IMG/VR virus record: IMGVR_UViG_2711768000_000011
Source of the DNA: a virus
Taxonomy: Duplodnaviria > Heunggongvirae > Uroviricota > Caudoviricetes
DNA length: 43,481 nucleotides
Strand: one strand, 5' to 3'
Below are positions 9,796 through 43,200 of this stretch, piece by piece. The translations under genes and the position numbers were made by a program. Numbering within the stretch: the first letter of the stretch is position 1; each line of letters opens with the position of its first letter. Below the pieces are notes generated by a model. It was not told the DNA's origin and made no database searches. It worked only from the letters and a program-made list of their open reading frames with translations.

Positions 9796-10226
9796 ATGAA
9801 AAATATTGCGACAGGCGACGTTCTTGAACGTATCCGCAGACTGGCCCCGTCACATGTAACCGCGCCATTCAAGACGGTAGCGGAGTGGCGCGAGTGGCAA
9901 CTTTCCGAAGGCCAGAAACGTTGTGAGGAGATCAACCGTCAGAATCGTCAGTTGCGGGTGGAAAAAATTCTGAATCGCTCTGGCATCCAGCCATTGCACC
10001 GCAAATGCTCGTTTTCGAATTACCAGGTGCAGAACGAAGCGCAGCGATACGCGTTGAGTCAGGCGAAATCCATCGCTGATGAACTGATGACCGGGTGTAC
10101 AAATTTTGCGTTCAGCGGAAAACCTGGTACCGGGAAGAACCACTTAGCGGCAGCTATCGGGAATCGCCTGCTGAAAGACGGTCAGACAGTGATTGTGGTT
10201 ACCGTGGCTGATGTTATGAGTGCCCT
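9796..10226 (+). CDS. ydaV: DnaC-like helicase loader (IstB-type AAA+), 3' end lost in assembly gap
   Basis: Walker A GKPGTGKNHLAAAIG. The ORF runs into the N-run at 10227. The track's 422-aa ORF is an artefactual fusion across the gap. Confidence 0.75.
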
Positions 10227-10278
10227 NNNNNNNNNNNNNNNNNNNNNNNNNNNNNNNNNNNNNNNNNNNNNNNNNNNN
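10227..10278. other. Assembly gap (52 N)
   Basis: Run of N characters. Confidence 1.
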
Positions 10279-10302
10279 AATTTTTACCGGGAGGAAATTT
10301 TT

Positions 10303-11064
10303 ATGGAGACTGTTTTTGACGCACTGAAAGCAATGGGAAAAGCCACATCCATAGAACTTGCTGCGCGACTTGATATCAGTCGTGAAGAAGTGCTGAACGA
10401 ACTATGGGAACTGAAAAAAGCTGGTTTCGTTGATAAAAGCGCGTACACCTGGCGTGTGGCTGATAACAACGTTCAGCAGGAACAGCCAATGCAGGCAGAA
10501 CTGCCGGAAGAAACCACCACGGCAACTGTAGTGAAAATCTCAGAGTGCGATTTAACCGCGACGATTGAACAACGCGGACCACAAACGGCGGATGAACTGG
10601 CTACGCTGTTCGGTACAACATCCCGCAAAGTTGCTTCAACGCTGGCAATGGCAATCAGCAAAGGACGCCTGATTCGCGTAAACCAGAACAGTAAATTTCG
10701 TTACTGCATGCCGGGCGATAATTTACCAGCAGAGCCGAAAGCTGCATCGGTAGCGGAAACTGATGGTAAAGCCTTTCCTCAGCCAGCCGGTGTTGCGTTA
10801 CCAGTACAGGAAGCGGCAACACAGGAAGATATTAAAACAGAAACTGTGGCGGACATTGTGCAGTCGCTGCCATCGTTTACTGAAACGCAAGCGGATGACC
10901 TAGTTTTACCATCGCTGCATATGGCAAACCGCGAACTGCGTCGGGCGAAAAATCATGTCCAGAAGTGGGAGCGAGTCTGCGCCGCGCTGCGGGAGCTGAA
11001 CAAGCACCGGGATATTGTCCGACAGATTGTCGATTCCTCCAGTCGTATTGTGTCGGAAAAGTGA
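10303..11064 (+). CDS. Hypothetical protein with two winged-helix-like segments and a C-terminal coiled coil, 253 aa
   Basis: ATG 10303 with GGGAGG SD just after the gap. Function unknown. Confidence 0.6.
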
Positions 11065-11496: not shown

Positions 11497-11634
11497 ACGT
11501 TACTAGATCAAAGAGCATTAGTTCATATGTAAATTGACATTTTTCTGGCACAGGGGAGAGCTAGCGTGGTTGTCCGCTTTGTGCCAATAGCGGACATTGC
11601 TGGCTCATGGTATGTTAGTTTAAGGAGGCAGGTT

Positions 11635-12657
11635 ATGCCCTGTATTTCGCTGTGGTATAATAGTTGCGCAATTGATACAAGGGAGCGTTACATCGTGAAA
11701 ATTGTTTTCGAGGTTAATGGAAAGAAAGTTCCACTAAAATCTTTAAAATACATAAGCAAAAAAGATCAACTCGAAGTAATGAAAAACTGGTTCTTTGAAA
11801 ACTTTGAAGATCCGGCAAATGCTTGTCCGTATGAAAGTAGAGAAGGTGGCTATGCTTACATATATGGCGGGCCGTATGATGCGAGCGAAGAACTACAATC
11901 CATCTTCGGTCAATATGTTAAATCTGAGTATATTGAGGAATTAGTAGATGAATTACAAACACAATGTTTTGACTGGTCTGGAAACTCAAATAATATAGAT
12001 GATTGGTACGATGATGATATCTACGACGCTGTAACGTCTTCCGGTAATCCGTATTTAAAATTCATTGATAATATCGATAAAATAAAAAAACTTGCAAAAG
12101 ATAAAACTGAACAACAGCAAAAAAACCACTTGCTTAGTTTGCTCTACACGAATGTTATTACAGCTTTGGAAACGCTTTATGTTGAGCTATTCATTAATTC
12201 TATAGAGAAAGATGATGTCTACATAGCCAATTGTATAGAAAAAGGTAAGACTGAATTTAAAGTAAGCAAAGATATTGCTGCGTTGCCTTTCAAGGGTGAA
12301 CCCATCGAGAAAATTAGGGGAGAGCTAATCAGGTCAATCAAGGAACACTTGATCAGTGCAAGCTGGCATAGCACTAAAAAGGTAATCGACCGCTATGAAG
12401 CTACATTCGATATAAAAGTACAAAAAGACTGTCCGATAGAAGCTATTGAATTGGCAACCCTCAATCGAAATCACTTAGTGCATCGTGGTGGAAAGGATAA
12501 AGAAGGGAACCTCGTAGTGATTACAGACCAGGATCTTGAAACGCTGATTGAAAATGCATCGAACCTGGCAATTATGCTCTACAACAGTTTAAATGTAGCA
12601 ACGAATAAAACCACCATTTTGCAACCAGATGACAAACCGTTCATTCATGAATTTTAA
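11635..12657 (+). CDS. Cassette gene A: hypothetical low-GC protein with an Rx4H (HEPN-like) motif RNHLVH
   Basis: Start ambiguous: ATG 11635 with AAGGAGG SD, or GTG 11695 with GGGAG SD. Coding region is about 35% GC. Acidic N-terminal half and helical C-terminal half. No recognisable phage function. Confidence 0.7.
   Translation: MPCISLWYNSCAIDTRERYIVKIVFEVNGKKVPLKSLKYISKKDQLEVMKNWFFENFEDPANACPYESREGGYAYIYGGPYDASEELQSIFGQYVKSEYIEELVDELQTQCFDWSGNSNNIDDWYDDDIYDAVTSSGNPYLKFIDNIDKIKKLAKDKTEQQQKNHLLSLLYTNVITALETLYVELFINSIEKDDVYIANCIEKGKTEFKVSKDIAALPFKGEPIEKIRGELIRSIKEHLISASWHSTKKVIDRYEATFDIKVQKDCPIEAIELATLNRNHLVHRGGKDKEGNLVVITDQDLETLIENASNLAIMLYNSLNVATNKTTILQPDDKPFIHEF
11653..11661 (+). promoter_or_regulatory. 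Candidate extended -10 (TGgTATAAT) upstream of or within the start of cassette gene A
   Basis: Motif seen directly; a perfect TTGACA lies at 11534-11539. Conflicts with the ATG 11635 start, so either the promoter or that start is wrong. Confidence 0.3.
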
Positions 12658-12672
12658 TAGCGCAGGTCATAC

Positions 12673-13674
12673 ATGGATATTCGCACACGAAAGACAAAAT
12701 TTTTAGAGTCGTTAGATTCAACTGAAGTGATACGCAAAGCAGTAAGTCTCGCTATAGATTGCATTATTGATAATCATAATAGTAATGAAGATACCCCCTT
12801 AGTTATTACCAGCTATGATGATCTCTGTAGAATCCAGGTGCTAAATTATGTACAGGAGTTTTGCGAAGCTGCATTCCCTGATATGGATGAATATTACTTT
12901 AGTCCTAACATACTTCGCATCAACGGCAAGACTAGTGAAGAAGCTTGTATTAACTTAATTAAACTCTTAAGAAGTACAAAAGGCATGCTATTCTGGTCCG
13001 ATGCCCCATCGTGGTTCGCTAGCCTCCCCGACGGATTATTCCATGTTGTTAACATTGATCAAAAAATCGTTACTCGCGGCCTTAATAAGAAAAACTCTAA
13101 GCCGACAATAATCAATAAAGATTACAGTGTAGATACACTACTATCAGAGCTATTTTTGAATGGCGCACACATGGAGCAACCCAACGTACACAACGTTTCT
13201 GAGGGAAACATGAAGTTCTATGATGAATGCCATGCTGGATTAATCAGACCAATACCCGCTCCAATAGGCGCGTCATACGATGAAGAGATCACAATTAATT
13301 CTCCAGATTGGCAAAAGCTCGCGTGTGTAGCTTTACGCCGCTATCAGTCGAAGGAATGTCATGACGGAATGCAATGGGATACAACCGATCATGGTTGGAC
13401 TGATGTAATCGCGTATCCATTCGTCGAAGAAATACAATCAATGGATAATAGTGGTTATCGACAATGTTTAGTTGGGCTGGTCACAATAAACAATTCAAAT
13501 GCAAATTCTCCGTACCTATCTACCGTTTGGATACATCCATTTTATCGCAGGAGAGGGTTATTAAGTAAGTTATGGCCAAAATTACAAGAGTTATATGGAA
13601 GTAACTTCGAAATTGAGCGACCTAATGAAAATATGAAAGCATTTCTGAAAAGTGCGAAACACGCAGATTACTAA
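12673..13674 (+). CDS. Cassette gene B: hypothetical low-GC protein, 333 aa, with a weak GNAT-like motif near the C-terminus
   Basis: Starts 15 nt after gene A stop, so likely co-transcribed. C-terminal LVGLVTI...HPFYRRRGLLSKLW resembles a GNAT beta-strand plus motif A, non-canonically. No recognisable phage function. Confidence 0.7.
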   Translation: MDIRTRKTKFLESLDSTEVIRKAVSLAIDCIIDNHNSNEDTPLVITSYDDLCRIQVLNYVQEFCEAAFPDMDEYYFSPNILRINGKTSEEACINLIKLLRSTKGMLFWSDAPSWFASLPDGLFHVVNIDQKIVTRGLNKKNSKPTIINKDYSVDTLLSELFLNGAHMEQPNVHNVSEGNMKFYDECHAGLIRPIPAPIGASYDEEITINSPDWQKLACVALRRYQSKECHDGMQWDTTDHGWTDVIAYPFVEEIQSMDNSGYRQCLVGLVTINNSNANSPYLSTVWIHPFYRRRGLLSKLWPKLQELYGSNFEIERPNENMKAFLKSAKHADY

Positions 13675-20319: not shown

Positions 20320-20456
20320 AATCTTAACTACAATATGATTCATTTTGATGATTGTTTCATAAGGAACAGTGAAGTAAGATCTAAGAGGAGTTAAATTTTA
20401 TACAGTATAATCATAATATTGCAGCAAGGTGGTTATAATTGAAAGAATATTTAGAT

Positions 20457-21914
20457 ATGAATACATCTCATGTAAGAGTTGTTACTCATATGTGTGGGTT
20501 CCTGGTTTGGCTCTATAGTCTTTCAATGTTGCCACCAATGGTTGTAGCATTGTTTTATAAAGAAAAAAGCCTGTTCGTTTTCTTTATAACTTTCGTTATA
20601 TTTTTTTGCATTGGTGGCGGAGCGTGGTATACAACTAAGAAATCTGGCATTCAATTACGTACCCGTGATGGGTTTATTATAATTGTAATGTTTTGGATTT
20701 TGTTTTCTGTTATTAGTGCATTCCCTTTATGGATTGACTCAGAACTTAATTTAACGTTCATTGATGCTCTGTTTGAAGGGGTTTCTGGAATAACAACAAC
20801 AGGAGCAACTGTAATTGATGATGTTAGTTCATTACCTCGGGCATATTTGTACTATCGGTCACAGTTAAATTTTATAGGTGGTTTAGGAGTTATTGTTCTG
20901 GCGGTTGCAGTATTGCCATTATTGGGTATTGGTGGTGCAAAGCTTTATCAGTCAGAAATGCCGGGGCCATTTAAGGATGACAAACTCACTCCCCGCCTGG
21001 CCGATACGTCACGGACACTGTGGATAACTTATTCTTTATTAGGTATTGCTTGTATTGTCTGTTATAGACTTGCAGGAATGCCTTTGTTTGATGCTATTTG
21101 TCACGGGATTTCCACAGTTTCGCTTGGTGGTTTCTCAACTCATAGCGAGAGTATCGGATATTTTAATAACTATTTGGTTGAGCTGGTGGCTGGTTCTTTT
21201 TCCCTGCTATCGGCTTTCAACTTCACTCTTTGGTATATTGTTATTAGCAGAAAAACGATAAAACCTTTAATCAGAGATATTGAACTTCGTTTCTTTCTGT
21301 TAATAGCCTTAGGGGTGATCATTGTTACCTCTTTCCAGGTCTGGCATATAGGTATGTATGACTTGCATGGAAGTTTTATTCATTCGTTTTTTCTTGCCAG
21401 CTCCATGCTCACTGATAATGGTTTAGCTACGCAGGATTATGCAAACTGGCCCACGCACACGATAGTGTTTTTGCTGTTGTCAAGTTTCTTTGGGGGATGT
21501 ATAGGTTCAACCTGTGGTGGAATTAAGTCACTTCGATTTCTTATACTTTTCAAACAAAGCAAACACGAGATAAATCAGCTTTCTCATCCCAGAGCGTTGT
21601 TGAGTGTAAATGTAGGAGGGAAGATAGTTACAGATCGTGTAATGAGGTCTGTATGGAGTTTCTTTTTTCTTTATACTCTCTTCACGGTGTTTTTTATACT
21701 GGTGTTAAATGGTATGGGATATGATTTTCTTACATCATTTGCAACAGTGGCTGCATGTATTAATAATATGGGATTAGGTTTTGGGGCTACTGCATCGTCA
21801 TTCGGAGTGCTTAATGACATTGCAAAATATTTAATGTGCATAGCTATGATTCTTGGTCGCCTTGAAATTTATCCTGTTATTATATTGTTTTCAGGTTTTT
21901 TTTGGCGCTCCTAA
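20457..21914 (+). CDS. trkG: TrkG potassium uptake protein (TrkH family), 485 aa
   Basis: Multi-pass membrane protein from MNTSHVRVVTHMCGFLVW. Recognised as Rac TrkG. Low GC. Confidence 0.9.
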   Translation: MNTSHVRVVTHMCGFLVWLYSLSMLPPMVVALFYKEKSLFVFFITFVIFFCIGGGAWYTTKKSGIQLRTRDGFIIIVMFWILFSVISAFPLWIDSELNLTFIDALFEGVSGITTTGATVIDDVSSLPRAYLYYRSQLNFIGGLGVIVLAVAVLPLLGIGGAKLYQSEMPGPFKDDKLTPRLADTSRTLWITYSLLGIACIVCYRLAGMPLFDAICHGISTVSLGGFSTHSESIGYFNNYLVELVAGSFSLLSAFNFTLWYIVISRKTIKPLIRDIELRFFLLIALGVIIVTSFQVWHIGMYDLHGSFIHSFFLASSMLTDNGLATQDYANWPTHTIVFLLLSSFFGGCIGSTCGGIKSLRFLILFKQSKHEINQLSHPRALLSVNVGGKIVTDRVMRSVWSFFFLYTLFTVFFILVLNGMGYDFLTSFATVAACINNMGLGFGATASSFGVLNDIAKYLMCIAMILGRLEIYPVIILFSGFFWRS

Positions 21915-22000
21915 TATATGGCTGATTTATAATTGTGAGTTTAATATTATGTTGACTCACTCATTGATCCAATACCTAACTTTACCAGCAACACCTCCGC

Positions 22001-22035
22001 CCCCAGTAGCACTGGCTGCTGGGGTGCGTTTTATT
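22001..22035 (+). terminator. Possible terminator after trkG (CCCCAG...CTGGGG then GCGTTTTATT)
   Basis: 6-bp stem with 12-nt loop; the T-run starts 4 nt after the stem. Weak. Confidence 0.3.
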
Positions 22036-22051
22036 CATAAAGCAAGGCTGT

Positions 22052-22840
22052 ATGAGCGAGAAATTAAAGATAGTCTATCGCCCATTACAAGAATTGTCAC
22101 CGTATGCGCACAACGCCAGGACGCACAGTACTGAGCAGGTGGCACAACTGGTAGAAAGTATTAAGCAATTCGGCTGGACTAATCCGGTGCTGATTGACGA
22201 AAAGGGCGAAATTATTGCGGGTCACGGTCGTGTTATGGCGGCTGAAATGCTCAAAATGGATTCTGTTCCGGTCATTGTTCTGTCTGGCCTGACGGATGAG
22301 CAGAAAAAGGCGTACCGCCTGGCAGATAATCGCCTGCCGATGAATGCTGGCTGGGATGAAGATCTGTTGCGGATGGAGCTGTCGGACCTAATCAATGCTG
22401 ATTTTGATGTCTCCCTGACAGGCTTCATCCCGGCAGAAATTGATGAACTGTTGACGGATGTTTTGCCCGGTACAGGAAATGAGGAGGAGCCGTATACGAC
22501 GAAAATTGATACGCCTGTTTATGAGCCGTCAGGCGGTAAACCGGATATCAGTGAACTGTACGACGATACGAAAACTCAGGAGCTGATCAGCCGGATACGT
22601 TCGGCGTCCCTTGATCCTGATATTGAGAAATTCCTCCTGTGTGCAGCAGAACGTCACACGGTGTTTAATTTCAGCAGAATTGCGGACTATTACGCTCATG
22701 CCCCCGCTGAAATTCAGTGCCTTTTCGAGGAGTCGGCGCTGGTGATCATTGATTATCAGCAGGCTATTGAAAATGGATTTGTCCGAATGACGCAGCGCAT
22801 GGTGGAGATCATGCATGGCGGGGAGGAGGAATATGCGTGA
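22052..22840 (+). CDS. ParB-like nuclease-domain protein, 262 aa
   Basis: N-terminal KIVYRPLQELSPYAHNARTH...IIAGHGRVMAA resembles the ParB/Srx N-domain. C-terminal part is of unknown function. Confidence 0.65.
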   Translation: MSEKLKIVYRPLQELSPYAHNARTHSTEQVAQLVESIKQFGWTNPVLIDEKGEIIAGHGRVMAAEMLKMDSVPVIVLSGLTDEQKKAYRLADNRLPMNAGWDEDLLRMELSDLINADFDVSLTGFIPAEIDELLTDVLPGTGNEEEPYTTKIDTPVYEPSGGKPDISELYDDTKTQELISRIRSASLDPDIEKFLLCAAERHTVFNFSRIADYYAHAPAEIQCLFEESALVIIDYQQAIENGFVRMTQRMVEIMHGGEEEYA

Positions 22841-23765
22841 TGATTTTTGCGCCTTTATTCTGACTCACGGGCGACCGGACAAAGTTCTGACTTACCGGAC
22901 GTTGCGTCGTGCTGGCTATACCGGGAAAATTTTTATCGTTGTTGATGATGAAGATAAGACACGGCATCAGTACATGGCTGAATTTGGTGAACAGGTGCTG
23001 GTATTTTCCAAAGCCGATATTGCTAGTCGTTTTGACGAAGCCGATAATTTTAGTGACCGCCGCTCAATTTTTTACGCCCGTAATGCCTGTTTCGACCAGG
23101 CAAAACTGGTCGGGTGTAAATACTTCATTCAGCTCGATGATGATTATCACGAGTTCCAGTTTCGGGTGGATCGCAACTATGACCAGGCCTATTTCCCGAT
23201 AAGGAAACTGGATGAGATCCTTTCTGAAATGCTTGCGTACTACGAATCAATACCTGCTCTTTCCATCGCTATGTCGCAGGGCGGGGATTTTCTTGGTGAC
23301 AATGGCGGCCATGCTTCGTGGGTGAAACGCAAGGCAATGAACAGCTTTATCTGTTCGGTTGATCGACCGTTCTCATTCATGGGGCGCATTAACGAGGATG
23401 TGAATACGTACACGAATCTCGGTCGCTGTGGTGAATTGTTTATGACGATCGGTGCTGTCCAGTTAGGGCAGAAACAGACGCAGAAAAACAGCGGCGGAAT
23501 GACCGAGCTGTATCTGGATTCCGGAACCTACGTTAAAAGTTTTTACTCCGTCATGTATGCGCCGTCGTGCGTAAAAATCTCACTTATGGGTGCCAGTCAT
23601 AAACGCATTCACCATCAGGTCACCTGGAACAACGCTGCAGTAAAAATCCTTCACGAAAAATACAGGAAGAAGACACCCTGCATATCAATGGGGGTGACAA
23701 ATGATTCCGTATTCGAAAGTCGAGTCTCTGGCAGCGTGCCGGATGACTGCACAACAAATCGCTGA
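22833..23765 (+). CDS. Hypothetical protein, about 310 aa, with weak GT-A-like (nucleotide-sugar transferase) features
   Basis: ATG 22833 with GGAGGAGG SD, overlapping the upstream stop by 8 nt. Hydrophobic strand followed by VVDDEDK and later QLDDDYHEF (DxD-like). Fold assignment is tentative. Confidence 0.55.
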   Translation: MRDDFCAFILTHGRPDKVLTYRTLRRAGYTGKIFIVVDDEDKTRHQYMAEFGEQVLVFSKADIASRFDEADNFSDRRSIFYARNACFDQAKLVGCKYFIQLDDDYHEFQFRVDRNYDQAYFPIRKLDEILSEMLAYYESIPALSIAMSQGGDFLGDNGGHASWVKRKAMNSFICSVDRPFSFMGRINEDVNTYTNLGRCGELFMTIGAVQLGQKQTQKNSGGMTELYLDSGTYVKSFYSVMYAPSCVKISLMGASHKRIHHQVTWNNAAVKILHEKYRKKTPCISMGVTNDSVFESRVSGSVPDDCTTNR

Positions 23766-23952
23766 CGTTCTGGATGTTGATCTGAACCGACTGAAAGAAA
23801 ATCGGGAAGCAATGACAGATTTTTATGCGGCCATCCGTAAGGGCAGAGCGAAAGGTGAAGCCGAGTTACGAGCGGCATTGTTTAAGCTTGCCAGAAAAGG
23901 GGATGCCTTTGCTCTGCGCGAACTACTCAGGGTGGATAAAAATCAGGACTAA
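23701..23952 (+). CDS. Small helix-rich protein, 83 aa, possible DNA-binding accessory protein upstream of terminase
   Basis: GGGGGTGA SD before ATG 23701. Overlaps the previous gene by 65 nt in another frame, so the start is uncertain. Confidence 0.4.
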   Translation: MIPYSKVESLAACRMTAQQIADVLDVDLNRLKENREAMTDFYAAIRKGRAKGEAELRAALFKLARKGDAFALRELLRVDKNQD

Positions 23953-23955
23953 CTG

Positions 23956-25050
23956 ATGAGCAGACCGGACTGGGGGGCGTTGCAGCAGGAGTATATTGCT
24001 GAATACACCCGCTCCGGTATATCTCCGGTGGCATGGTGTGAAGCAAGGGGACTGAATTACGCAACAGCCCGTCGTTACATCAAAAAAACTCCGAAAAATG
24101 CGCAGACAGAAATGTGCAAAACTGCGCAAAAAAGTGCGCAGAAAAAATCTGCGCAGACTGCACAAAAGCGGAACGAAAAATCTCAGGAAAAAAAGCCAGT
24201 ATTCGATGCGGGCCTGAATGAGGGCGACGCGGAGGAATTTTCGTTCTGTCCCGATGAATTCGGCATTTCTGACCAGCAGGCTAAGTTTGCGATGCTTGTT
24301 GCTCAGGGTAAAAAGCCGACAGAGGCGTACCGACTAGCCGGTTATGAGGGGCAAGGTGCGACAGCTAACAGCAACGCCAGTCGTATGCTTAGAAATGCCA
24401 GGGTTTTTCGCGCTATCAGCTACTTCCGCAATCAGTACCAGAAACGCTATACCGCAGACCTGGATTTACTAGTGAGTCAGTTGATGGCTATTGTCCTGGC
24501 CGACCCCAATCAGCTTGCACAATTTCGCCGTGTTAACTGCCGTTATTGCTGGGGCGAGAATCATCTCTACCAGTGGCGCGATATAGCAGAATTCGACAAG
24601 GCAGCGGCGCAGGCTTCCAGAGATGGCAAACCCGAACCGGAATATGGAGGCCTCGGCTTTGTTGATAACGCCATACCCAATCCGGACTGCCCGAAGTGCT
24701 GCGGTGAGGGAACGGGACAGCTTTATATGGCTGATACCACTCTGCTTGATGGGGATGCGCGGCAATTATATGCAGGGGCAAAATTCGGAAAATTCGGCGT
24801 TGAGATCCTGCTGGAGGATAAGGCTGCCGCCCGGCGTGAATTGTTGCGTTTGTTTTCTGCTGGCGGGGCTTTATGTGCAGATAAGCGGCTACGGGAACTG
24901 GAAATTGAACGGCGCAGAATGGAAAACCAGAAGCTGCGCAAAGAGATCGAAACGGTGGAAGATAATGAACATCCCCAGCCTGTGGCGATCAATATTAATG
25001 TGGTTGATGCCAGAGTAAGGAGTGATGAAGATGATCTCTCCGACGCTTAA
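23956..25050 (+). CDS. Terminase small subunit-like protein, 364 aa
   Basis: Central FAMLVAQGKKPTEAYRLAGYEG...ASRMLRNARV matches the terminase small-subunit (Terminase_2-type) signature. Lies immediately upstream of the large subunit. Confidence 0.65.
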   Translation: MSRPDWGALQQEYIAEYTRSGISPVAWCEARGLNYATARRYIKKTPKNAQTEMCKTAQKSAQKKSAQTAQKRNEKSQEKKPVFDAGLNEGDAEEFSFCPDEFGISDQQAKFAMLVAQGKKPTEAYRLAGYEGQGATANSNASRMLRNARVFRAISYFRNQYQKRYTADLDLLVSQLMAIVLADPNQLAQFRRVNCRYCWGENHLYQWRDIAEFDKAAAQASRDGKPEPEYGGLGFVDNAIPNPDCPKCCGEGTGQLYMADTTLLDGDARQLYAGAKFGKFGVEILLEDKAAARRELLRLFSAGGALCADKRLRELEIERRRMENQKLRKEIETVEDNEHPQPVAININVVDARVRSDEDDLSDA

Positions 25051-26332
25051 TGTGCCTCAGGCGCGATTTCTTTCAATGCCCCATAAATTTAAAGCCTATA
25101 TTGCTGGTTTTGGCTCGGGCAAAACATGGGTTGGGTGTGGCGGCATATGCAAGGGGATTTGGGAGCATCCAGGTATAAATCAGGGATATTTTGCGCCAAC
25201 GTATCCCCAAATTCGCGATATTTTTTACCCTACAGTGGAAGAAGTTGCTGCTGACTGGGGATTGAACGTAAAAATTAATGAGGGAAATAAAGAGGTTCAC
25301 TTTTATTACGGACGCCAGTATCGGGGAACCACTATCTGCAGATCGATGGAGAAGCCACAAACGATCGTCGGTTTCAAAATTGGTAATGCGTTGGTGGATG
25401 AACTGGACATTTTGCCGAAGGAAAAAGCCAGAACGGCGTGGCGCAAGATAATTGCACGTATGCGTTATAAGATTGATGGACTTCGCAACGGTATTGACGT
25501 TACAACCACGCCGGAAGGATTCAAATTTGTCTACGAGCAGTTTGTTAAAGCCGTGCGTGAAAAAACAGAGCTGGCCTCACTGTATGGTCTGGTGCAGGCA
25601 TCTACTTTCGATAATGAAAAGAACCTGCCAGCAGATTACATTCCTTCGCTTCTTGAATCATACCCTCCAGAGCTGATTAAAGCCTATCTTCGAGGACAGT
25701 TTACTAACCTGACAAGTGGTACTGTTTACCATCAGTTTGACCGGAAACTGAATAATTGCGAAGAAGTGGAGCAGCCAGGGGAGCCGATTTATATTGGGAT
25801 GGATTTTAACGTTGGAAAGATGGCGGGAATCGTCCATGTGCTGCGTTTGGGGCTTCCATGTGCGGTAACTGAAATCATCAATGCCTACGATACGCCGGAT
25901 ATGATCCGCATCATTAAAGAACGCTTCTGGCTGTATGATGGGAATGATTACCGGAAAGTGAGGGAAATTTATATTTATCCAGATGCTTCCGGGGATTCCA
26001 GAAAATCAAGTAACGCAAGTACGACGGATATAGCCCAGCTTAAGCAGGCTGGTTTTAACGTTGTGGTGAACAGCTCGAACCCGCCAGTAAAAGATCGCGT
26101 TAACTCAATGAATGCAATGTTCTGCAATGCCAATGGTGAGCGTCGCTATAAAGTTAATGTGAAGCGTTGCCCGTTATATGCCGAATCTCTGGAGCAACAG
26201 GTCTGGGATGAGAAGGGGGAGCCTGATAAAAAATCTGGCAATGATCACCCGAATGATGCCGGAGGTTATTTCATCGTTAAGCAATTCCCTATTGTCAAAC
26301 CGACCGGAAGAGTCACATCACTTCGGATTTAA
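25022..26332 (+). CDS. Terminase large subunit, 436 aa
   Basis: Walker A AGFGSGKTW near the N-terminus and acidic nuclease-domain residues later. Start could be ATG 25025. Confidence 0.8.
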   Translation: MMKMISPTLNVPQARFLSMPHKFKAYIAGFGSGKTWVGCGGICKGIWEHPGINQGYFAPTYPQIRDIFYPTVEEVAADWGLNVKINEGNKEVHFYYGRQYRGTTICRSMEKPQTIVGFKIGNALVDELDILPKEKARTAWRKIIARMRYKIDGLRNGIDVTTTPEGFKFVYEQFVKAVREKTELASLYGLVQASTFDNEKNLPADYIPSLLESYPPELIKAYLRGQFTNLTSGTVYHQFDRKLNNCEEVEQPGEPIYIGMDFNVGKMAGIVHVLRLGLPCAVTEIINAYDTPDMIRIIKERFWLYDGNDYRKVREIYIYPDASGDSRKSSNASTTDIAQLKQAGFNVVVNSSNPPVKDRVNSMNAMFCNANGERRYKVNVKRCPLYAESLEQQVWDEKGEPDKKSGNDHPNDAGGYFIVKQFPIVKPTGRVTSLRI

Positions 26333-38955: not shown

Positions 38956-39693
38956 ATGACACAGACAGAATCAGCGATTCTGGCGCACGCCCGGCGATGT
39001 GCGCCAGCGGAGTCGTGCGGCTTCGTGGTGAGAACACCGGAGGGGGAAAGATATTTTCCCTGCGTGAATATTTCCGGTGAGCCGGAGGAGTATTTCCGNN
39101 NNNNNNNNNNNNNNNNNNNNNNNNNNNNNNNNNNNNNNNNNNNNNNNNNNNNNNNNNNNNNNNNNNNNNNNNNNNNNNNNNNNNNNNNNNNNNNNNNNNN
39201 NNNNNNNNNNNNNNNNNNNNNNNNNNNNNNNNNNNNNNNNNNNNNNNNNNNNNNNNNNNNNNNNNNNNNNNNNNNNNNNNNNNNNNNNNNNNNNNNNNNN
39301 NNNNNNNNNNNNNNNNNNNNNNNNNNNNNNNNNNNNNNNCTGGCGGGAATTGAGATGCCAGATTTTCATCGTGAGGACGACTGGTGGCGTAATGGTCAGA
39401 ATCTCTATCTGGATAATCTGGAGGCTACAGGGCTGTATCAGGTGCCGTTGTCAACGGCGCAGCCGGGCGATGTGCTGCTGTGCTGTTTTGGTTCATCGGT
39501 GCCGAATCATGCCGCCATTTACTGTGGTGACGGCGAGCTGCTGCACCATATTCCTGAACAACTGAGTAAACGAGAGAGGTACACCGACAAATGGCAGCGA
39601 CGCACACACTCCCTCTGGCGTCACCGGGCATGGCACGCATCTGCCTTTACGGGGATTTGCAGCGATTTGGCCGCCGCATCGACCTTCGTGTGA
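38956..39693 (+). CDS. K: Tail assembly protein K (lambda gpK-like), interrupted by assembly gap
   Basis: N-terminus MTQTESAILAHARRCAPAESCGF and C-terminal part recognised. The middle is replaced by N 39099-39339. Confidence 0.75.
   Translation: MTQTESAILAHARRCAPAESCGFVVRTPEGERYFPCVNISGEPEEYFXXXXXXXXXXXXXXXXXXXXXXXXXXXXXXXXXXXXXXXXXXXXXXXXXXXXXXXXXXXXXXXXXXXXXXXXXXXXXXXXXLAGIEMPDFHREDDWWRNGQNLYLDNLEATGLYQVPLSTAQPGDVLLCCFGSSVPNHAAIYCGDGELLHHIPEQLSKRERYTDKWQRRTHSLWRHRAWHASAFTGICSDLAAASTFV
39099..39339. other. Assembly gap (241 N)
   Basis: Run of N characters. Confidence 1.
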
Positions 39694-40238
39694 AAACGGG
39701 GGCCGAAGCCATCCGGGCACTGGCCACACAGCTCCCGGCATTTCGTCAGAAACTGAGCGACGGCTGGTATCAGGTGCGCATTGCCGGGCGTGATGCAGGC
39801 GAAAATGAATTATCTGCCCGTCTTAATGAACCGCTGGCAAATGGTGCCGTGATCCACATCGTTCCGCGTCTGGCGGGTGCCAAAAGTGGCGGTGTGTTTC
39901 AGGCGGTGCTGGGTGCGGCGCTGATTGCGGTGGCATGGTGGAACCCTGTGGGCTGGCTGGGGGCCGCGGCTGTATCGGGTATGTATGCAGCAGGGGCCAG
40001 TATGATCCTGGGTGGTGTGGCGCAGATGCTGGCACCGAAAGCCAGGACGCCCACGGCAGCCAGTACAGATAACGGCAAACAGAACACGTATTTCTCGTCA
40101 CTGGATAACATGGTTGCCCAGGGTAATGTTCTGCCTGTTCTGTACGGGGAAATGCGCGTGGGGTCACGTGTGGTTTCTCAGGAGATCAGCACGGCAGACG
40201 AAGGGGATGGTGGTCAGGTTGTGGTGATTGGTCGCTGA
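39591..40238 (+). CDS. I: Tail assembly protein I (lambda gpI-like), 215 aa
   Basis: MAATHTLPLASPGMARICLYGDLQRFGRR... recognised as lambda I. Overlaps the 3' end of K in another frame, as in lambda. Confidence 0.85.
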   Translation: MAATHTLPLASPGMARICLYGDLQRFGRRIDLRVKTGAEAIRALATQLPAFRQKLSDGWYQVRIAGRDAGENELSARLNEPLANGAVIHIVPRLAGAKSGGVFQAVLGAALIAVAWWNPVGWLGAAAVSGMYAAGASMILGGVAQMLAPKARTPTAASTDNGKQNTYFSSLDNMVAQGNVLPVLYGEMRVGSRVVSQEISTADEGDGGQVVVIGR

Positions 40239-43200
40239 TGCAAANNNNNNNNNNNNNNNNNNNNNNNNNNNNNNNNNNNNNNNNNNNNNNNNNNNNNNNN
40301 NNNNNNNNNNNNNNNNNNNNNNNNNNNNNNNNNNNNNNNNNNNNNNNNNNNNNNNNNNNNNNNNNNNNNNNNNNNNNNNNNNNNNNNNNNNNNNNNNNNN
40401 NNNNNNNNNNNNNNNNNNNNNNNNNNNNNNNNNNNNNNNNNNNNNNNNNNNNNNNNNNNNNNNNNNNNNNNNNNNNNNNNNNNNNNNNNNNNNNNNNNNN
40501 NNNNNNNNNNNNNNNNNNNNNNNNNNNNNNNNNNNNNNNNNNNNNNNNNNNNNNNNNNNNNNNNNNNNNNNNNNNNNNNNNNNNNNNNNNNNNNNNNNNN
40601 NNNNNNNNNNNNNNNNNNNNNNNNNNNNNNNNNNNNNNNNNNNNNNNNNNNNNNNNNNNNNNNNNNNNNNNNNNNNNNNNNNNNNNNNNNNNNNNNNNNN
40701 NNNNNNNNNNNNNNNNNNNNNNNNNNNNNNNNNNNNNNNNNNNNNNNNNNNNNNNNNNNNNNNNNNNNGGAAAAAGACATCACCATTAAGGGCAAAACCA
40801 CCTCGCAGTATCTGGTCTCGGTGGTGGTGGATAACCTGCCTCCGCGCCCGTTCAGTATCCGGATGCGCAGGATGACACCGGACAGCACCACAGACCAGCT
40901 GCAGAACAAAACGCTCTGGTCGTCATACACCGAAATCATCGATGTGAAACAGTGCTACCCGAACACTGCACTGGTCGGCGTACAGGTGGACTCGGAGCAG
41001 TTCGGCAGCCAGCAGGTGAGTCGTAATTATCATCTTCGCGGGCGCATTCTGCAGGTGCCGTCGAACTATAACCCGCAGACGCGACAATACAGCGGTATCT
41101 GGGACGGAACGTTAAAACCAGCATACAGCAACAACATGGCCTGGTGTCTGTGGGATATGCTGACCCACCCGCGCTACGGCATGGGGAAACGTCTTGGTGC
41201 GGCGGATGTGGACAAATGGGCGCTGTATGTCATCGGCCAGTACTGCGACCAGTCAGTGCCGGACGGCTTTGGCGGCACGGAGCCGCGCATCACCTGTAAT
41301 GCGTACCTGACCACACAGCGCAAGGCGTGGGATGTGCTCAGTGATTTCTGCTCGGCGATGCGCTGTATGCCGGTATGGAACGGGCAGACGCTGACGTTCG
41401 TGCAGGACCGACCGTCGGATAAGGTGTGGACCTATAACCGCAGTAATGTGGTGATGCCGGATGATGGCGCGCCGTTCCGCTACAGCTTCAGCGCCCTGAA
41501 AGACCGCCATAATGCCGTTGAGGTGAACTGGATTGACCCGGATAACGGCTGGGAGACGGCGACAGAGCTTGTGGAGGATACGCAGGCCATTGCCCGTTAC
41601 GGTCGTAACGTCACGAAGATGGATGCTTTTGGCTGTACCAGCCGGGGGCAGGCACACCGCGCCGGGCTGTGGCTGATTAAAACAGAACTGCTGGAAACGC
41701 AGACCGTGGACTTCAGCGTGGGCGCAGAAGGGCTTCGCCATGTGCCGGGCGATGTCATTGAAATCTGTGATGATGACTATGCGGGTATCAGCATCGGCGG
41801 GCGCGTGCTGGCGGTAAACAGCCAGACCCGGACGCTGACGCTCGACCGTGAAATCACGCTGCCATCCTCCGGTACCATGCTGATAAGCCTGGTTGACGGA
41901 AGTGGCAATCCGGTCAGCGTGGAGGTTCAGTCCGTCACCGACGGCGTGAAGGTGAAAGTGAGCCGTGTTCCTGACGGCGTTGCTGAATACAGCGTGTGGG
42001 GGCTGAAGCTGCCGACGTTGCGCCAGCGCCTGTTCCGCTGTGTGAGTATCCGTGAGAACGATGACGGCACGTATGCCATCACTGCCGTGCAGCATGTACC
42101 GGAAAAAGAAGCCATCGTGGATAACGGGGCGCACTTTGACGGCGACCAGAGCGGCACGGTGAATGGTGTCACGCCGCCAGCGGTGCAGCACCTGACTGCC
42201 GAAGTCACCGCAGACAGCGGGGAATATCAGGTGCTGGCGCGCTGGGACACGCCGAAGGTGGTGAAGGGGGTGAGCTTTATGCTTCGCCTGACCGTGGCAG
42301 CGGATGACGGCAGTGAGCGGCTGGTCAGCACGGCCCGGACGACGGAAACCACATACCGCTTCACGCAACTGGCGCTGGGACGGTACACGCTGACAGTCCG
42401 GGCGGTAAATGCCTGGGGACAGCAGGGCGATCCGGCGTCGGTATCGTTCAGGATTGCCGCACCGGTAGCACCGTCGCGGATTGAGCTGACGCCGGGCTAT
42501 TTTCAGATAACTGCCACGCCGCATCTTGCGGTTTATGATCCGACGGTACAGTTTGAGTTCTGGTTCTCGGAAACGCGGATTACCGATATCAGGCAGGTTG
42601 AAACCACAGCCCGCTACCTTGGCGCGGGGCTGTACTGGATAGCCGCCAGTATCAATATCAAACCGGGCCATGATTATTACTTTTATATCCGCAGTGTGAA
42701 CACCGTTGGCAAATCGGCATTCGTGGAGGCCGTCGGTCGGGCGAGCGATGATGCGGAAGGTTACCTGGATTTTTTCAAAGGCAAGATAACCGAATCCCAT
42801 CTCGGTAAAGAGCTGCTGGAAAAAGTTGATCTGACGGAGGATAACGCCAGCAGACTGGATGAGTTTTCGAAAGAGTGGAAGGACGCTAACGATAAATGGA
42901 ATGCGATGTGGGGCGTCAAAATTGAGCAGACCAAAGACGGCAAACATTATGTCGCGGGTATTGGCCTCAGCATGGAGGACACGGAGGAAGGCAAGCTGAG
43001 CCAGTTTCTGGTTGCCGCCAATCGTATCGCGTTTATTGACCCGGCAAACGGGAATGAAACGCCGATGTTTGTGGCGCAGGGCAACCAGATATTCATGAAC
43101 GACGTGTTCCTGAAGCGCCTGACAGCCCCCGCCATTACCAGCGGTGGCAGTCCTCCGGTATTTTCCCTGACATCAGACGGAAAGCTGACCGCTAAAAATG

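Follow-up and report, generated by a model that had tools for sequence, protein, structure and literature searches.

What does a glycosyltransferase do at the entrance to the packaging genes of a prophage, and which protein does it need beside it? The locus that raises this question lies in a 43,481-nt stretch of viral DNA (IMG/VR record IMGVR_UViG_2711768000_000011; "the window" means the whole of that stretch), which is a Rac-type lambdoid prophage of Escherichia coli. Its positions 21900-24000 are 100% identical to strain EC2 (NZ_CP058571), where the copy is surrounded by recET, lysis genes, trkG and a full head and tail gene set. Between trkG and the terminase genes, two overlapping genes encode an acidic protein of 262 aa with a ParB/Srx-type N-terminal module, and a glycosyltransferase (GT) of 310 aa. 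By sequence and fold comparison the 310-aa protein is a TAGT-family, GT-A-fold, DXD-dependent glycosyltransferase, and the constant partner of its clade is a previously unnoticed C-terminal domain (CTD) of the acidic protein, not the ParB domain. The components are of known kinds, and the combination of an obligate CTD with a TAGT appears to be new. We read the pair, with a probability of about 0.5, as a late-expressed, adaptor-dependent DNA glycosylation module, because of the substrates of TAGT enzymes, the methyltransferase-type ParB module, an architecture like that of the ParB activators of dioxygenases, and the basic character of the GT; DNA as the substrate, the CTD as activator or adaptor, and the biological role are what we infer from these. 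The features of the pair are as follows.

22052-22840, + strand: gene for the putative acidic adaptor (ynaK at full length), 262 aa; open reading frame (ORF) list, Pfam, PHROG and AlphaFold2 (AF2)
22052-22459, + strand: ParB/Srx-type N-module, aa 1-136; Pfam, PDB profile, Foldseek, PADLOC and phrog_498
22493-22528, + strand: linker motif YTTKIDTPVYEP, aa 148-159; alignment and AF2
22547-22837, + strand: CTD, aa ~166-262, helical and acidic; profile comparison and alignment
22820-22840, + strand: translational-coupling junction, with Shine-Dalgarno sequence GGGGAGGAGG at 22820-22829, ATG at 22833 and TGA at 22838-22840
22833-23765, + strand: TAGT-family GT-A gene, 310 aa; PF20691 and phrog_842; PGAP name GREB1-related protein
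23136-23147, + strand: DDDY, GT aa 102-105, the DXD metal/nucleotide-sugar motif; invariant
23388-23411, + strand: INEDVNTY, GT aa 186-193, second acidic catalytic motif (E-D...Y); invariant or nearly so
23499-23702, + strand: basic C-terminal module of the GT, aa ~223-290; phrog_31222, invariant residues and charge

The sequence-only reading, an earlier account of this DNA, had called the glycosyltransferase assignment weak, and this was not borne out: family profiles, fold matches and invariant motifs all make it strong. The protein matches the Pfam TAGT model PF20691 at 118.8 bits (gathering threshold 27.5, E 4.1e-34, model positions 4-205 of 205) and phrog_842 at 8e-104, and PF20691 is precomputed on 120 of 120 GT homologues among the matches listed. 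Aligned with relatives from Salmonella, Pantoea, a sphingomonad, phi jlb1, HHTV-2, NTR1 and a 191-kb Vibrio phage, it keeps R14, D41, D102-D103-D104-Y105, Q149/G151-D152 (QGGD) and R166-K167/M169-N170 (RKxMN) invariant, and further on I186-N-E-D-V-N191/Y193, T216-Q217, G231-T232/K235-S-F-Y238 and R258/H260-H261. The acidic stretches that had been picked out by eye, VVDDEDK (aa 36-42) and QLDDDYHEF (aa 100-108), are indeed present and hold the invariant D38, D41 and D102-D104/Y105. Across bacteria, archaea and phage, the conservation of R14, D102-D104/Y105 and E188-D189...Y193 is complete or reaches at least 90%, and R...DDD...ED(Y/F) is the active-site signature of phage DNA-modifying GT-A enzymes (bioRxiv 10.1101/2023.12.21.572611). 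AF2 models of the two proteins, built on enterobacterial alignments of 55-99% identity, reach a predicted local distance difference test (pLDDT) of 66 and 69, that of the GT being confident for aa 1-150 only. The modelled part matches GT-A enzymes in the PDB (SpsA, glycogenin and GT2 members; Foldseek, E about 3e-4), and the fold matches viral TAGT models in BFVD at 2.8e-21; where the earlier account had allowed for a non-transferase fold, structure comparison thus gave GT-A matches instead. The donor is probably a UDP-hexose. The Pfam match stops near aa 222, and the next ~65 residues (GTYVKSFY...RIHH) are clade-specific and basic, with an isoelectric point (pI) of 9.6; this module is a candidate surface for binding the CTD or the substrate. 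The GT as a whole is basic (family median pI 8.95), and neither of the two proteins has a hydrophobic segment (maximum KD19 1.25 and 1.08).

ORF coordinates and junction sequence confirm the 262-aa ParB-like ORF, the 8-nt overlap and the following protein of about 310 aa as they had been described. The junction reads GGGGAGGAGGAATATGCGTGA, with a GGAGG Shine-Dalgarno sequence 6 nt upstream of ATG 22833, and the 8 nt shared by the ParB stop and the GT start are ATGCGTGA; stop/start overlaps of 4-11 nt are also found in phi jlb1 (Lactobacillus), HHTV-2 (Haloarcula) and NTR1 (Nocardia). A mechanical ORF list opens the GT at its first ATG, 22815 (22815-23765, 316 aa); the start at 22833, which gives 310 aa, is backed by PGAP's equivalent start and by relatives without the upstream ATG, which begin there. 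Both genes are real and under strong purifying selection: database homologues of each run into the thousands, at E-values as low as 1e-208, and in comparisons with unsaturated synonymous sites dN/dS is ~0.12 for the ParB-like gene and ~0.07 for the GT. Of 5426 complete E. coli genomes, 889 (~16%) hold the pair intact, at a coverage of at least 80%, and phages in GenBank carry the GT at 98.7-99% identity (Escherichia phages vB_EcoS-...R... and Salmonella phage SPF_0923).

How tightly the two genes are linked was measured on loci fetched with the GT peptides INEDVN[TMY] and DDDY, in three IMG/VR scans with different reference sequences and in one genome per GTDB species, so that the figures describe a motif-defined GT clade and are silent on the T-even and 5mYOX-associated TAGTs. 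Across the 302 assessable loci (225 viral contigs and 77 genome contigs) the partner always lies within about 2.5 kb of the GT, and it is directly adjacent in 288. On the viral contigs it stands directly upstream or overlaps in 214 of 225 and is nearby in the remaining 11. Among these exceptions are a frameshift-split GT whose partner gene is still directly adjacent (L086), loci with an inserted second TAGT paralogue (L172, L182, L190 and L198), a radical-SAM gene (L102/L227) or CofD/YvcK-like-HAD and nucleotidyltransferase genes (L218), and two with reversed gene order (L165/L166). The remaining one (L181) carries a natural ParB-CTD-GT fusion in a single 522-aa ORF. The genome loci have the partner in 77 of 77 cases, adjacent in 74, and their hosts include Ignavibacteria, Bacillota, Bacteroidota, Desulfovibrionaceae, Thermodesulfobacteriota, Planctomycetota, Verrucomicrobia, Spirochaetes, Chlorobi, Actinobacteria, bacteria of the candidate phyla radiation (CPR) and one archaeon. 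The pair also sits on a plasmid of Virgibacillus sp. CBA3643 (pCBA3643-01, 49,973 bp; L235), which may be a phage-plasmid.

What these partners have in common is not what their name suggests. With the E. coli protein split for the search, it is the last ~115 residues that recur throughout (in 224 of 225 viral loci), so the ParB domain, after which the GT's partner had first been described, is not its constant part: of 113 dereplicated partners, 99 have a ParB-type N-module, all fitting one profile, and 11 consist of the CTD alone, with lengths of 123-156 aa and positions away from contig ends, those of the Vibrio jumbo phages among them. Ahead of the CTD runs a linker, predicted by AF2 to be unstructured, whose motif YTxKIxxPxYEP has an invariant Pro and second Tyr in 51 diverse partners. 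Invariant in the same 51 sequences, within the CTD itself, are Arg, followed by a His at 90% or more (AAxRHxVF), Ala and Tyr (IAxYYA), Asp (LVIID) and Ala (AIxNG). No Pfam model covers the CTD, and its profile gave only spurious helical-repeat matches against PDB sequences. A search of 1.84 billion representatives found it in 1195 proteins, 1009 of them at 1e-10 or better; in the best 150 of the 1195 it lies at the protein C-terminus, and the proteins are mostly of 250-310 or 130-200 aa. The window partner is strongly acidic (pI 4.5, net charge -24), as is the family (median pI 4.6).

The N-terminal ParB/Srx domain had been noted before, and Pfam, a PDB profile search and Foldseek agree on it. 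Residues 1-95 pass the Pfam ParB_N model (PF02195) narrowly, at 29.3 bits for a cut-off of 26.3; the N-domain profile matches Noc/ParB structures in the PDB at 2.8e-5, and Foldseek returns Noc, ParB, PadC, KorB, Srx and SerK at 1e-6 to 1e-2. The module as a whole (aa 1-136) is a fold of the type that binds nucleoside triphosphates (NTPs), plus two helices, and the protein runs from this ParB/Srx N-domain through an acidic helical HH segment and the linker to the CTD; in the AF2 model it is folded over 1-95, has helices over 103-134, drops below pLDDT 50 over 137-158 and is helical over 166-255. Its box II, AGHGR, aligns with ParB GERR, and the family motif is G-[H/N]-x-[R/T]: in 98 family members the Gly is invariant, the catalytic Glu gives way to His in 59 and to Asn in 38, and 82 retain the Arg. 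Given this invariant Gly, replaced Glu and frequent Arg, NTP binding by the module appears plausible though not universal, and ParB-type hydrolysis doubtful. Residues 10-144 match PADLOC MTase_II (PDLC03229) over positions 13-151 of 436 (E 1.5e-38), and the N-module matches phrog_498, 'DNA methyltransferase', over positions 31-171 of 633 (6e-51), which identifies it as the ParB module that phages fuse to DNA methyltransferases. PADLOC and PHROG show no methyltransferase catalytic domain in the window partner, the rest of which is the CTD, and beyond this N-module neither protein matches any other PADLOC defence model. The fusion architecture is known to be prophage-enriched (PMC12704722). Nothing supports the nuclease role implied by the earlier label 'ParB-like nuclease'; existing database labels for the protein include both 'partition protein' and 'nuclease'. 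A partition ParB was considered and rejected, since TIGR00180 scores 38.1 bits against a cut-off of 58.45 and over the N-domain only. Pfam gives no helix-turn-helix (HTH) match in the partner, and PGAP no ParA in the prophage.

If the pair acts on phage DNA, its place in the genome may indicate when. Pfam-identified flanks confirm the position between trkG and the terminase small subunit that had been proposed, and the 83-aa ORF reported to overlap the GT is there as well.

20439-21914, upstream flank: trkG; Pfam TrkH, 1e-144
22001-22024, + strand: terminator-like hairpin after trkG, with a 10 bp stem, 7 of them GC, and a T-run; sequence scan
23701-23952, + strand: 83-aa basic helical ORF; phrog_309, 8e-23; overlaps the GT 3' end by 65 nt
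23956-25050, + strand: TerS; Terminase_2
25022-26332, + strand: TerL; Terminase_6N/6C

The hairpin ends 27 nt ahead of the ParB-like start and marks the upstream boundary of the module, and a scan between it and the start at 22052 found no sigma-70-like promoter. On these two grounds the pair would be the first cistrons of the late, packaging operon. The arrangement extends well beyond E. coli: in 71 of the 92 dereplicated loci with enough flank, TerL follows within 4 kb and in the same direction, usually at 0.3-1.5 kb, and therefore with only the TerS gene intervening. The terminases beside the pair belong to several unrelated families (Terminase_2/6, Terminase_3 and Terminase_4/TerL_ATPase), and in the cos phage c5 the pair is ORF1 and ORF2, starting 90 nt from the genome end, next to cos. 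Neighbours were surveyed as 148 cluster representatives against Pfam, with the best 25 of 113 families, and the ten most frequent clusters were followed individually; apart from the terminases, what recurs is replication and head genes of ordinary type and, in subsets of loci, accessory genes. Setting aside the merged ParB/GT cluster and the large TerL-type cluster, the most widespread is a 153-aa ORF directly after the GT, without a Pfam match, in 36 of 117 loci.

The accessory genes are of a particular kind. A GalE UDP-glucose 4-epimerase (TIGR01179, 317 bits against a cut-off of 262) stands beside the pair in 8 of 117 dereplicated loci, a radical-SAM enzyme in 7 of 117 plus L102, and further subsets have a second TAGT or CofD/YvcK-like plus NTP-transferase genes. 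The radical-SAM enzyme, of ~320 aa (L102, 936-1904; L198, 8658-9614), is MoaA/SPASM-like by weak scores, with no equivalog, and could tailor the sugar or prepare the acceptor. Such genes make sense in a cluster that builds a glycan from UDP-sugars, and the gene set resembles the 'sequential GT' and 'epimerase + GT' subclasses described among phage DNA-glycan clusters (bioRxiv 10.1101/2023.12.21.572611). A metagenomic phage (L315, 17837-20316; L316, 8659-11138) has four consecutive GT2 genes just after the capsid gene besides the pair upstream of the terminase; this separate block possibly serves virion glycosylation.

Several known systems resemble parts of the pair, and each also departs from it. 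The T2/T6 beta-glucosyl-HMC-alpha-glucosyltransferase, prototype of PF20691, has the Pfam family, GT-A fold and DXD chemistry in common with the window GT, and PHROG gives the window GT its name. The T-even enzyme adds a second glucose to the glucosyl-5-hydroxymethylcytosine (5hmC) that a dCMP-hydroxymethylase and alpha-GT pathway supplies (PMC13216743). Unlike it, the window GT has a clade-specific basic C-terminal module and an obligate CTD partner, with which the T-evens have not been described, and neither annotation nor searches show a hydroxymethylase or alpha/beta-GT in the window, c5 or phi jlb1; the PHROG name is for these reasons misleading. A precedent for the partner is set by the ParB activators of 5mYOX (O'Toole et al., PNAS 2026, PMC13229309), in which a ParB-like gene lies beside a DNA-modifying enzyme, often near the terminase. 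By description the window partner fits their plan: a nucleotide-binding domain, a short helical segment, a ~50-aa disordered linker, a CTD and no DNA-binding domain. Those activators are needed by phage T-dioxygenases specifically on double-stranded DNA, and NTP-site mutations leave ParB176 activation unabolished (PMC13229309); likewise, NTP-site residues are not strictly conserved in the window partner family. GTs are the commonest domain near 5mYOX, at 31% (PMC13229309), and 5mYOX-associated GT-A enzymes glycosylate 5hmC (bioRxiv 10.1101/2023.12.21.572611); unlike in those systems, the ParB-like protein here is paired directly with a GT, and no 5mYOX was detected in the window, c5 or phi jlb1. 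The ParB-N/methyltransferase fusions have an N-terminal ~140 aa homologous to the window partner and are likewise prophage-enriched. In them the enzyme is covalently attached and canonical bases are methylated, whereas the window system has a separate GT that would be recruited by the CTD, covalent fusion being rare (L181). Further afield, the base J glucosyltransferase of kinetoplastids (JGT) and GREB1 of animals are GT-A enzymes associated with the TAGT superfamily, JGT being the top structural match of the phage 5mYOX-associated GT-A enzymes (bioRxiv 10.1101/2023.12.21.572611). JGT requires 5-hydroxymethyluracil (5hmU) made by JBP, and GREB1 O-GlcNAcylates protein (PMC7968844); neither has a ParB/CTD partner. 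ParB of ParABS systems, Noc and KorB have the N-terminal CTPase-type fold in common with the window partner, which differs from ParABS ParB in having no HTH, no ParA, no parS evidence, and G-[H/N]-x-[R/T] in place of GERR.

From these likenesses a mechanism can be sketched. The CTD and the YTxKIxxPxYEP linker would bind and activate the basic GT, and the ParB/Srx N-module, perhaps a frequently fused DNA- or NTP-coupling accessory, would couple it to DNA, possibly under NTP gating, on the model of the ParB activators of thymine dioxygenases. Because the pair would be expressed together with the terminase, we propose that it glycosylates replicated phage DNA just before or during packaging. Such glycosylation could alter recognition of the DNA by host defences.

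To our knowledge, phage DNA glycosylation occurs only downstream of 5-hydroxymethyl- or 5-hydroxy-pyrimidine synthesis, and the obvious question is where an acceptor would come from. Known DNA glycosylation requires a hydroxyl acceptor (PMC13216743; bioRxiv 10.1101/2023.12.21.572611), namely 5hmC or 5hmU made by a thymidylate-synthase-like enzyme or by a methyltransferase with TET/5mYOX, or else 5-hydroxy-C. Apart from the pair, the c5 ORFs of at least 200 aa have ordinary structural, replication, anti-repressor or lysis annotation, with the exception of a 208-aa protein that has no Pfam match, and in phi jlb1 every non-structural ORF that long is annotated. Precomputed Pfam annotation of the neighbours in L314-L316 shows no acceptor enzyme either. 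For 5mYOX the negative comes from Pfam TET_JBP, from the PGAP and PHROG annotations and from an account of gene sizes in complete small genomes, with no phage-specific 5mYOX hidden Markov model, and phage 5mYOX may escape Pfam, since thousands of divergent 5mYOX-like contigs have no Pfam TET/JBP annotation (PMC13229309). The association of TAGTs with TET/JBP (5mYOX) or a 5-hydroxymethyl-pyrimidine pathway was not found here, and the name 'TET-associated' describes the founding members of the family, not a membership requirement. The earlier proposal of a DNA-modification or packaging-associated module consequently stands in part: pre-terminase placement, TAGT identity and linkage favour it, and the acceptor-generating enzymes were not found.

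Several observations weigh against DNA glycosylation as the function of the pair. We know of no GT established as modifying canonical DNA bases. No TET/JBP, C5-methyltransferase or ThyA-like hydroxymethylase appears among the window ORFs or in the PGAP annotation, annotation and searches of the complete c5 (31.8 kb) and phi jlb1 (38.3 kb) sequences likewise give no acceptor enzymes, and no third gene family accompanies the pair consistently in the 117 dereplicated loci. The partner is strongly acidic and without a recognisable DNA-binding domain, ~10% of partners have no ParB module, and ~16% of the ParB modules no box II Arg. The AF2 models are moderate (pLDDT 66 and 69), the C-terminal half of the GT being unmodelled, and the searchable literature holds no experiments on any member of the pair. 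Finally, GREB1, itself a TAGT-family member, glycosylates protein (PMC7968844).

With no acceptor-making enzyme present, the GT would have to act on a group of canonical DNA, or else its target is not a base; the missing pathway allows new chemistry on canonical DNA and equally a non-DNA target. That the CTD-ParB-activated GT glycosylates canonical DNA, at an exocyclic amine, at a nitrogen or oxygen of the ring, or on the backbone, is a tentative proposal to which we give a minority share of our belief. The main rival reading, which we think unlikely, is that the substrate is a protein, the simplest candidate being the invariant Tyr or a Thr/Ser of the partner's own linker, in the manner of glycogenin, and otherwise a packaging or virion protein. 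GREB1 sets the precedent within the TAGT family, as an O-GlcNAc transferase acting on ER-alpha (PMC7968844), and the linker looks like a substrate, having a motif with invariant P and Y in a segment predicted to be unstructured, beside a docking-type domain. Strict co-inheritance and fusion would also be expected of an enzyme and its substrate, tandem second GTs could lengthen a protein-linked glycan, and no DNA acceptor pathway was found. Glycogenin is among the GT-A structural matches as well, although those matches amount to generic GT-A similarity (E about 1e-3, TM about 0.3). A protein target fits less well with a partner whose N-module is of the type fused to DNA methyltransferases and whose architecture is like that of the ParB activators of DNA dioxygenases, or with a GT that is basic, including its pI 9.6 C-terminal module, as for a nucleic-acid-binding enzyme; and L315 keeps its separate four-GT2 block beside the capsid gene, which is the arrangement expected for virion glycosylation. 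A conventional hypermodification, in which 5hmU, 5hmC or a sugar acceptor is provided by an unrecognised phage enzyme, the host or a co-resident element, seems to us decidedly unlikely. All characterised DNA-acting TAGT/GT-A enzymes use hydroxyls on 5-hydroxymethyl-pyrimidines or sugars (PMC13216743; bioRxiv 10.1101/2023.12.21.572611), thousands of divergent 5mYOX-like contigs do escape Pfam TET/JBP (PMC13229309), and a radical-SAM enzyme adjoins the pair in about 7 of 117 dereplicated loci. Yet c5 and phi jlb1 leave one 208-aa ORF as their sole unexplained non-structural protein of at least 200 aa, no other neighbour cluster goes beyond 36 of 117 loci, and no hydroxymethylated DNA base is common to the hosts, which belong to many phyla and include archaea. 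The window does contain uncharacterised genes of 363 and 333 aa, but these occur in 209 E. coli genomes against 889 with the pair.

Two further explanations lie well outside nucleic acid chemistry. The GT might modify a small molecule or a part of the host, such as a nucleotide, a signalling molecule or an envelope polymer, in the service of anti-defence or lysogenic conversion. Prophage TarP glycosylates teichoic acid, and the 5mYOX-associated GT-A enzymes are structurally like TarP (bioRxiv 10.1101/2023.12.21.572611). Proteins of ParB/Srx fold bind a range of NTPs, and some are small-molecule kinases (PMC12704722); SerK and Srx are among the Foldseek matches of the partner, and the PDB matches include AvpGT, a GT whose structure was solved in complex with the nucleoside analogue Ara-A. 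We nevertheless consider such a target very improbable. A membrane or surface-glycan role was rejected, because both proteins are soluble, with no hydrophobic segment in either; Gram-negative, Gram-positive, CPR and archaeal hosts share no envelope polymer; expression in lysogens is unlikely, because the pair lies behind a terminator in a late operon with no promoter-like site before its start; and no defence model matches besides the methyltransferase N-module. The explanation to which we give least credence is that the pair is a non-catalytic or nuclease accessory of packaging or partition, the ParB-like protein either binding or cutting DNA at pac/cos in aid of the terminase or serving in partition as on plasmids, and the GT being a structural partner or a moron. 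It would account for the conserved place immediately upstream of TerS/TerL and for the names 'partition protein' and 'nuclease' in databases, and some ParB/Srx proteins do have nuclease or NTPase activity (PMC4619093). It would leave unexplained why GT catalytic residues are invariant at a dN/dS of ~0.07, why the accessory genes are sugar-nucleotide enzymes, why the pair occurs with several unrelated terminase families, and why about 10% of partners can do without a ParB module when the CTD and GT are always kept. Nor does it sit well with the absence of an HTH or other DNA-binding domain and of a nearby ParA, with a TIGR00180 score of 38 bits below the cut-off of 58, or with the decay of the module in Ld25A and K-12 Rac.

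Returning to the DNA glycosylation module, its pieces had been glimpsed before: ParB-like genes and terminases were noted near phage GTs (bioRxiv 10.1101/2023.12.21.572611), a solitary, unexplained TAGT is present in 288 of 753 GT-encoding phages (PMC13216743), and solitary GTs make up ~65% of GT contigs (bioRxiv 10.1101/2023.12.21.572611). We found no description of an obligate CTD-TAGT pair, or of the CTD as a domain, in the searchable literature. One large clade of 'solitary' TAGTs is not solitary, being locked to a hitherto undefined acidic domain at the head of the packaging operon. Should the target prove to be DNA, either the modification chemistry or the acceptor would be new, with a bearing on restriction and defence evasion, on the sequencing behaviour of prophage DNA and on enzymatic DNA-labelling tools. 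Glycosylation of canonical DNA in particular would be an undescribed post-replicative chemistry in small temperate phages of many phyla and archaea, carried by about 1 in 6 complete E. coli genomes, and would explain part of the 'solitary TAGT' puzzle. If the target were instead the partner protein, the pair would be a self-priming glycoprotein system within phage packaging modules. Either way the system is tractable: it consists of two genes, is absent from K-12, and occurs in inducible E. coli prophages and in phages represented in GenBank.

The module is also lost, and its remains have left their mark on annotation. As the sequence-only reading stated, K-12 has remnants only: K-12-type strains retain the first 254 nt (ynaK), joined to ydaY. 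Many E. coli proteins begin with the ~165 N-terminal aa of the ParB-like protein and continue into fragments of Lom, tail-fibre-assembly, NlpC/P60 or TerL proteins, which suggests recurrent deletion end-points inside the ParB-like gene during Rac decay. In Lactobacillus phage Ld25A the 'ParB nuclease' gene retains, at positions 366-500, no more of the GT than 45 aa of its C-terminus; the module is thus not essential, because it is lost or collapsed in a close relative of phages that keep it. PGAP annotates EC2 ynaK as a 258-nt pseudogene 'missing C-terminus' (L001, 20153-20410), and the identical window DNA has 262 intact codons, so that the call looks like an artefact spread from the truncated 87-aa K-12 YnaK. 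Database labels that can now be corrected are 'partition protein', 'beta-glucosyl-HMC-alpha-glucosyltransferase' and the ynaK pseudogene calls.

The 83-aa ORF, which had been set beside the pair for its overlap with the GT, does overlap it but is not a member of the conserved pair. It is a TerS-related, enterobacteria-specific packaging gene: it matches phrog_309, 'terminase small subunit', and is kept between GT and TerS in enterobacterial relatives, N-terminus included; in loci further off it mostly went undetected. The overlap comes from ~20 additional residues at the C-terminus of the E. coli GT, which its ~288-aa relatives do not have. The PGAP start of this small ORF (equivalent to 23743) is 14 codons too late; the start at 23701 is favoured because the N-terminus MIPYxKVESLAAC is conserved, in six relatives, and the ATG there is preceded by the Shine-Dalgarno-like sequence GGGGGTGA.

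Three other regions of the window deserve mention. In the early region, the adjacent genes of 363 and 333 aa (11566-12657 and 12673-13674; phrog_17908 and phrog_16994) have only sub-threshold HEPN/RES-NTD and GNAT matches and no PADLOC match, and may be a moron, a toxin-antitoxin system or a defence cassette; as obligatory acceptor-making partners they are ruled out, because they occur in only 209 of the 5426 E. coli genomes. Around 40200-40950, between a lambda tail-assembly I-like gene (39591-40238) and a high-GC region, lies an island of 26% GC whose ORFs (183-241 aa, overlapping, on both strands) have no Pfam match, and which is probably an inserted moron. Finally, at 9796-11064 a single 422-aa ORF joins an IstB/DnaC-like ATPase (ydaV-like), an HTH and DUF1627, and the EC2 counterpart is split into a ydaV pseudogene with an internal stop and a separate DUF1627 gene.

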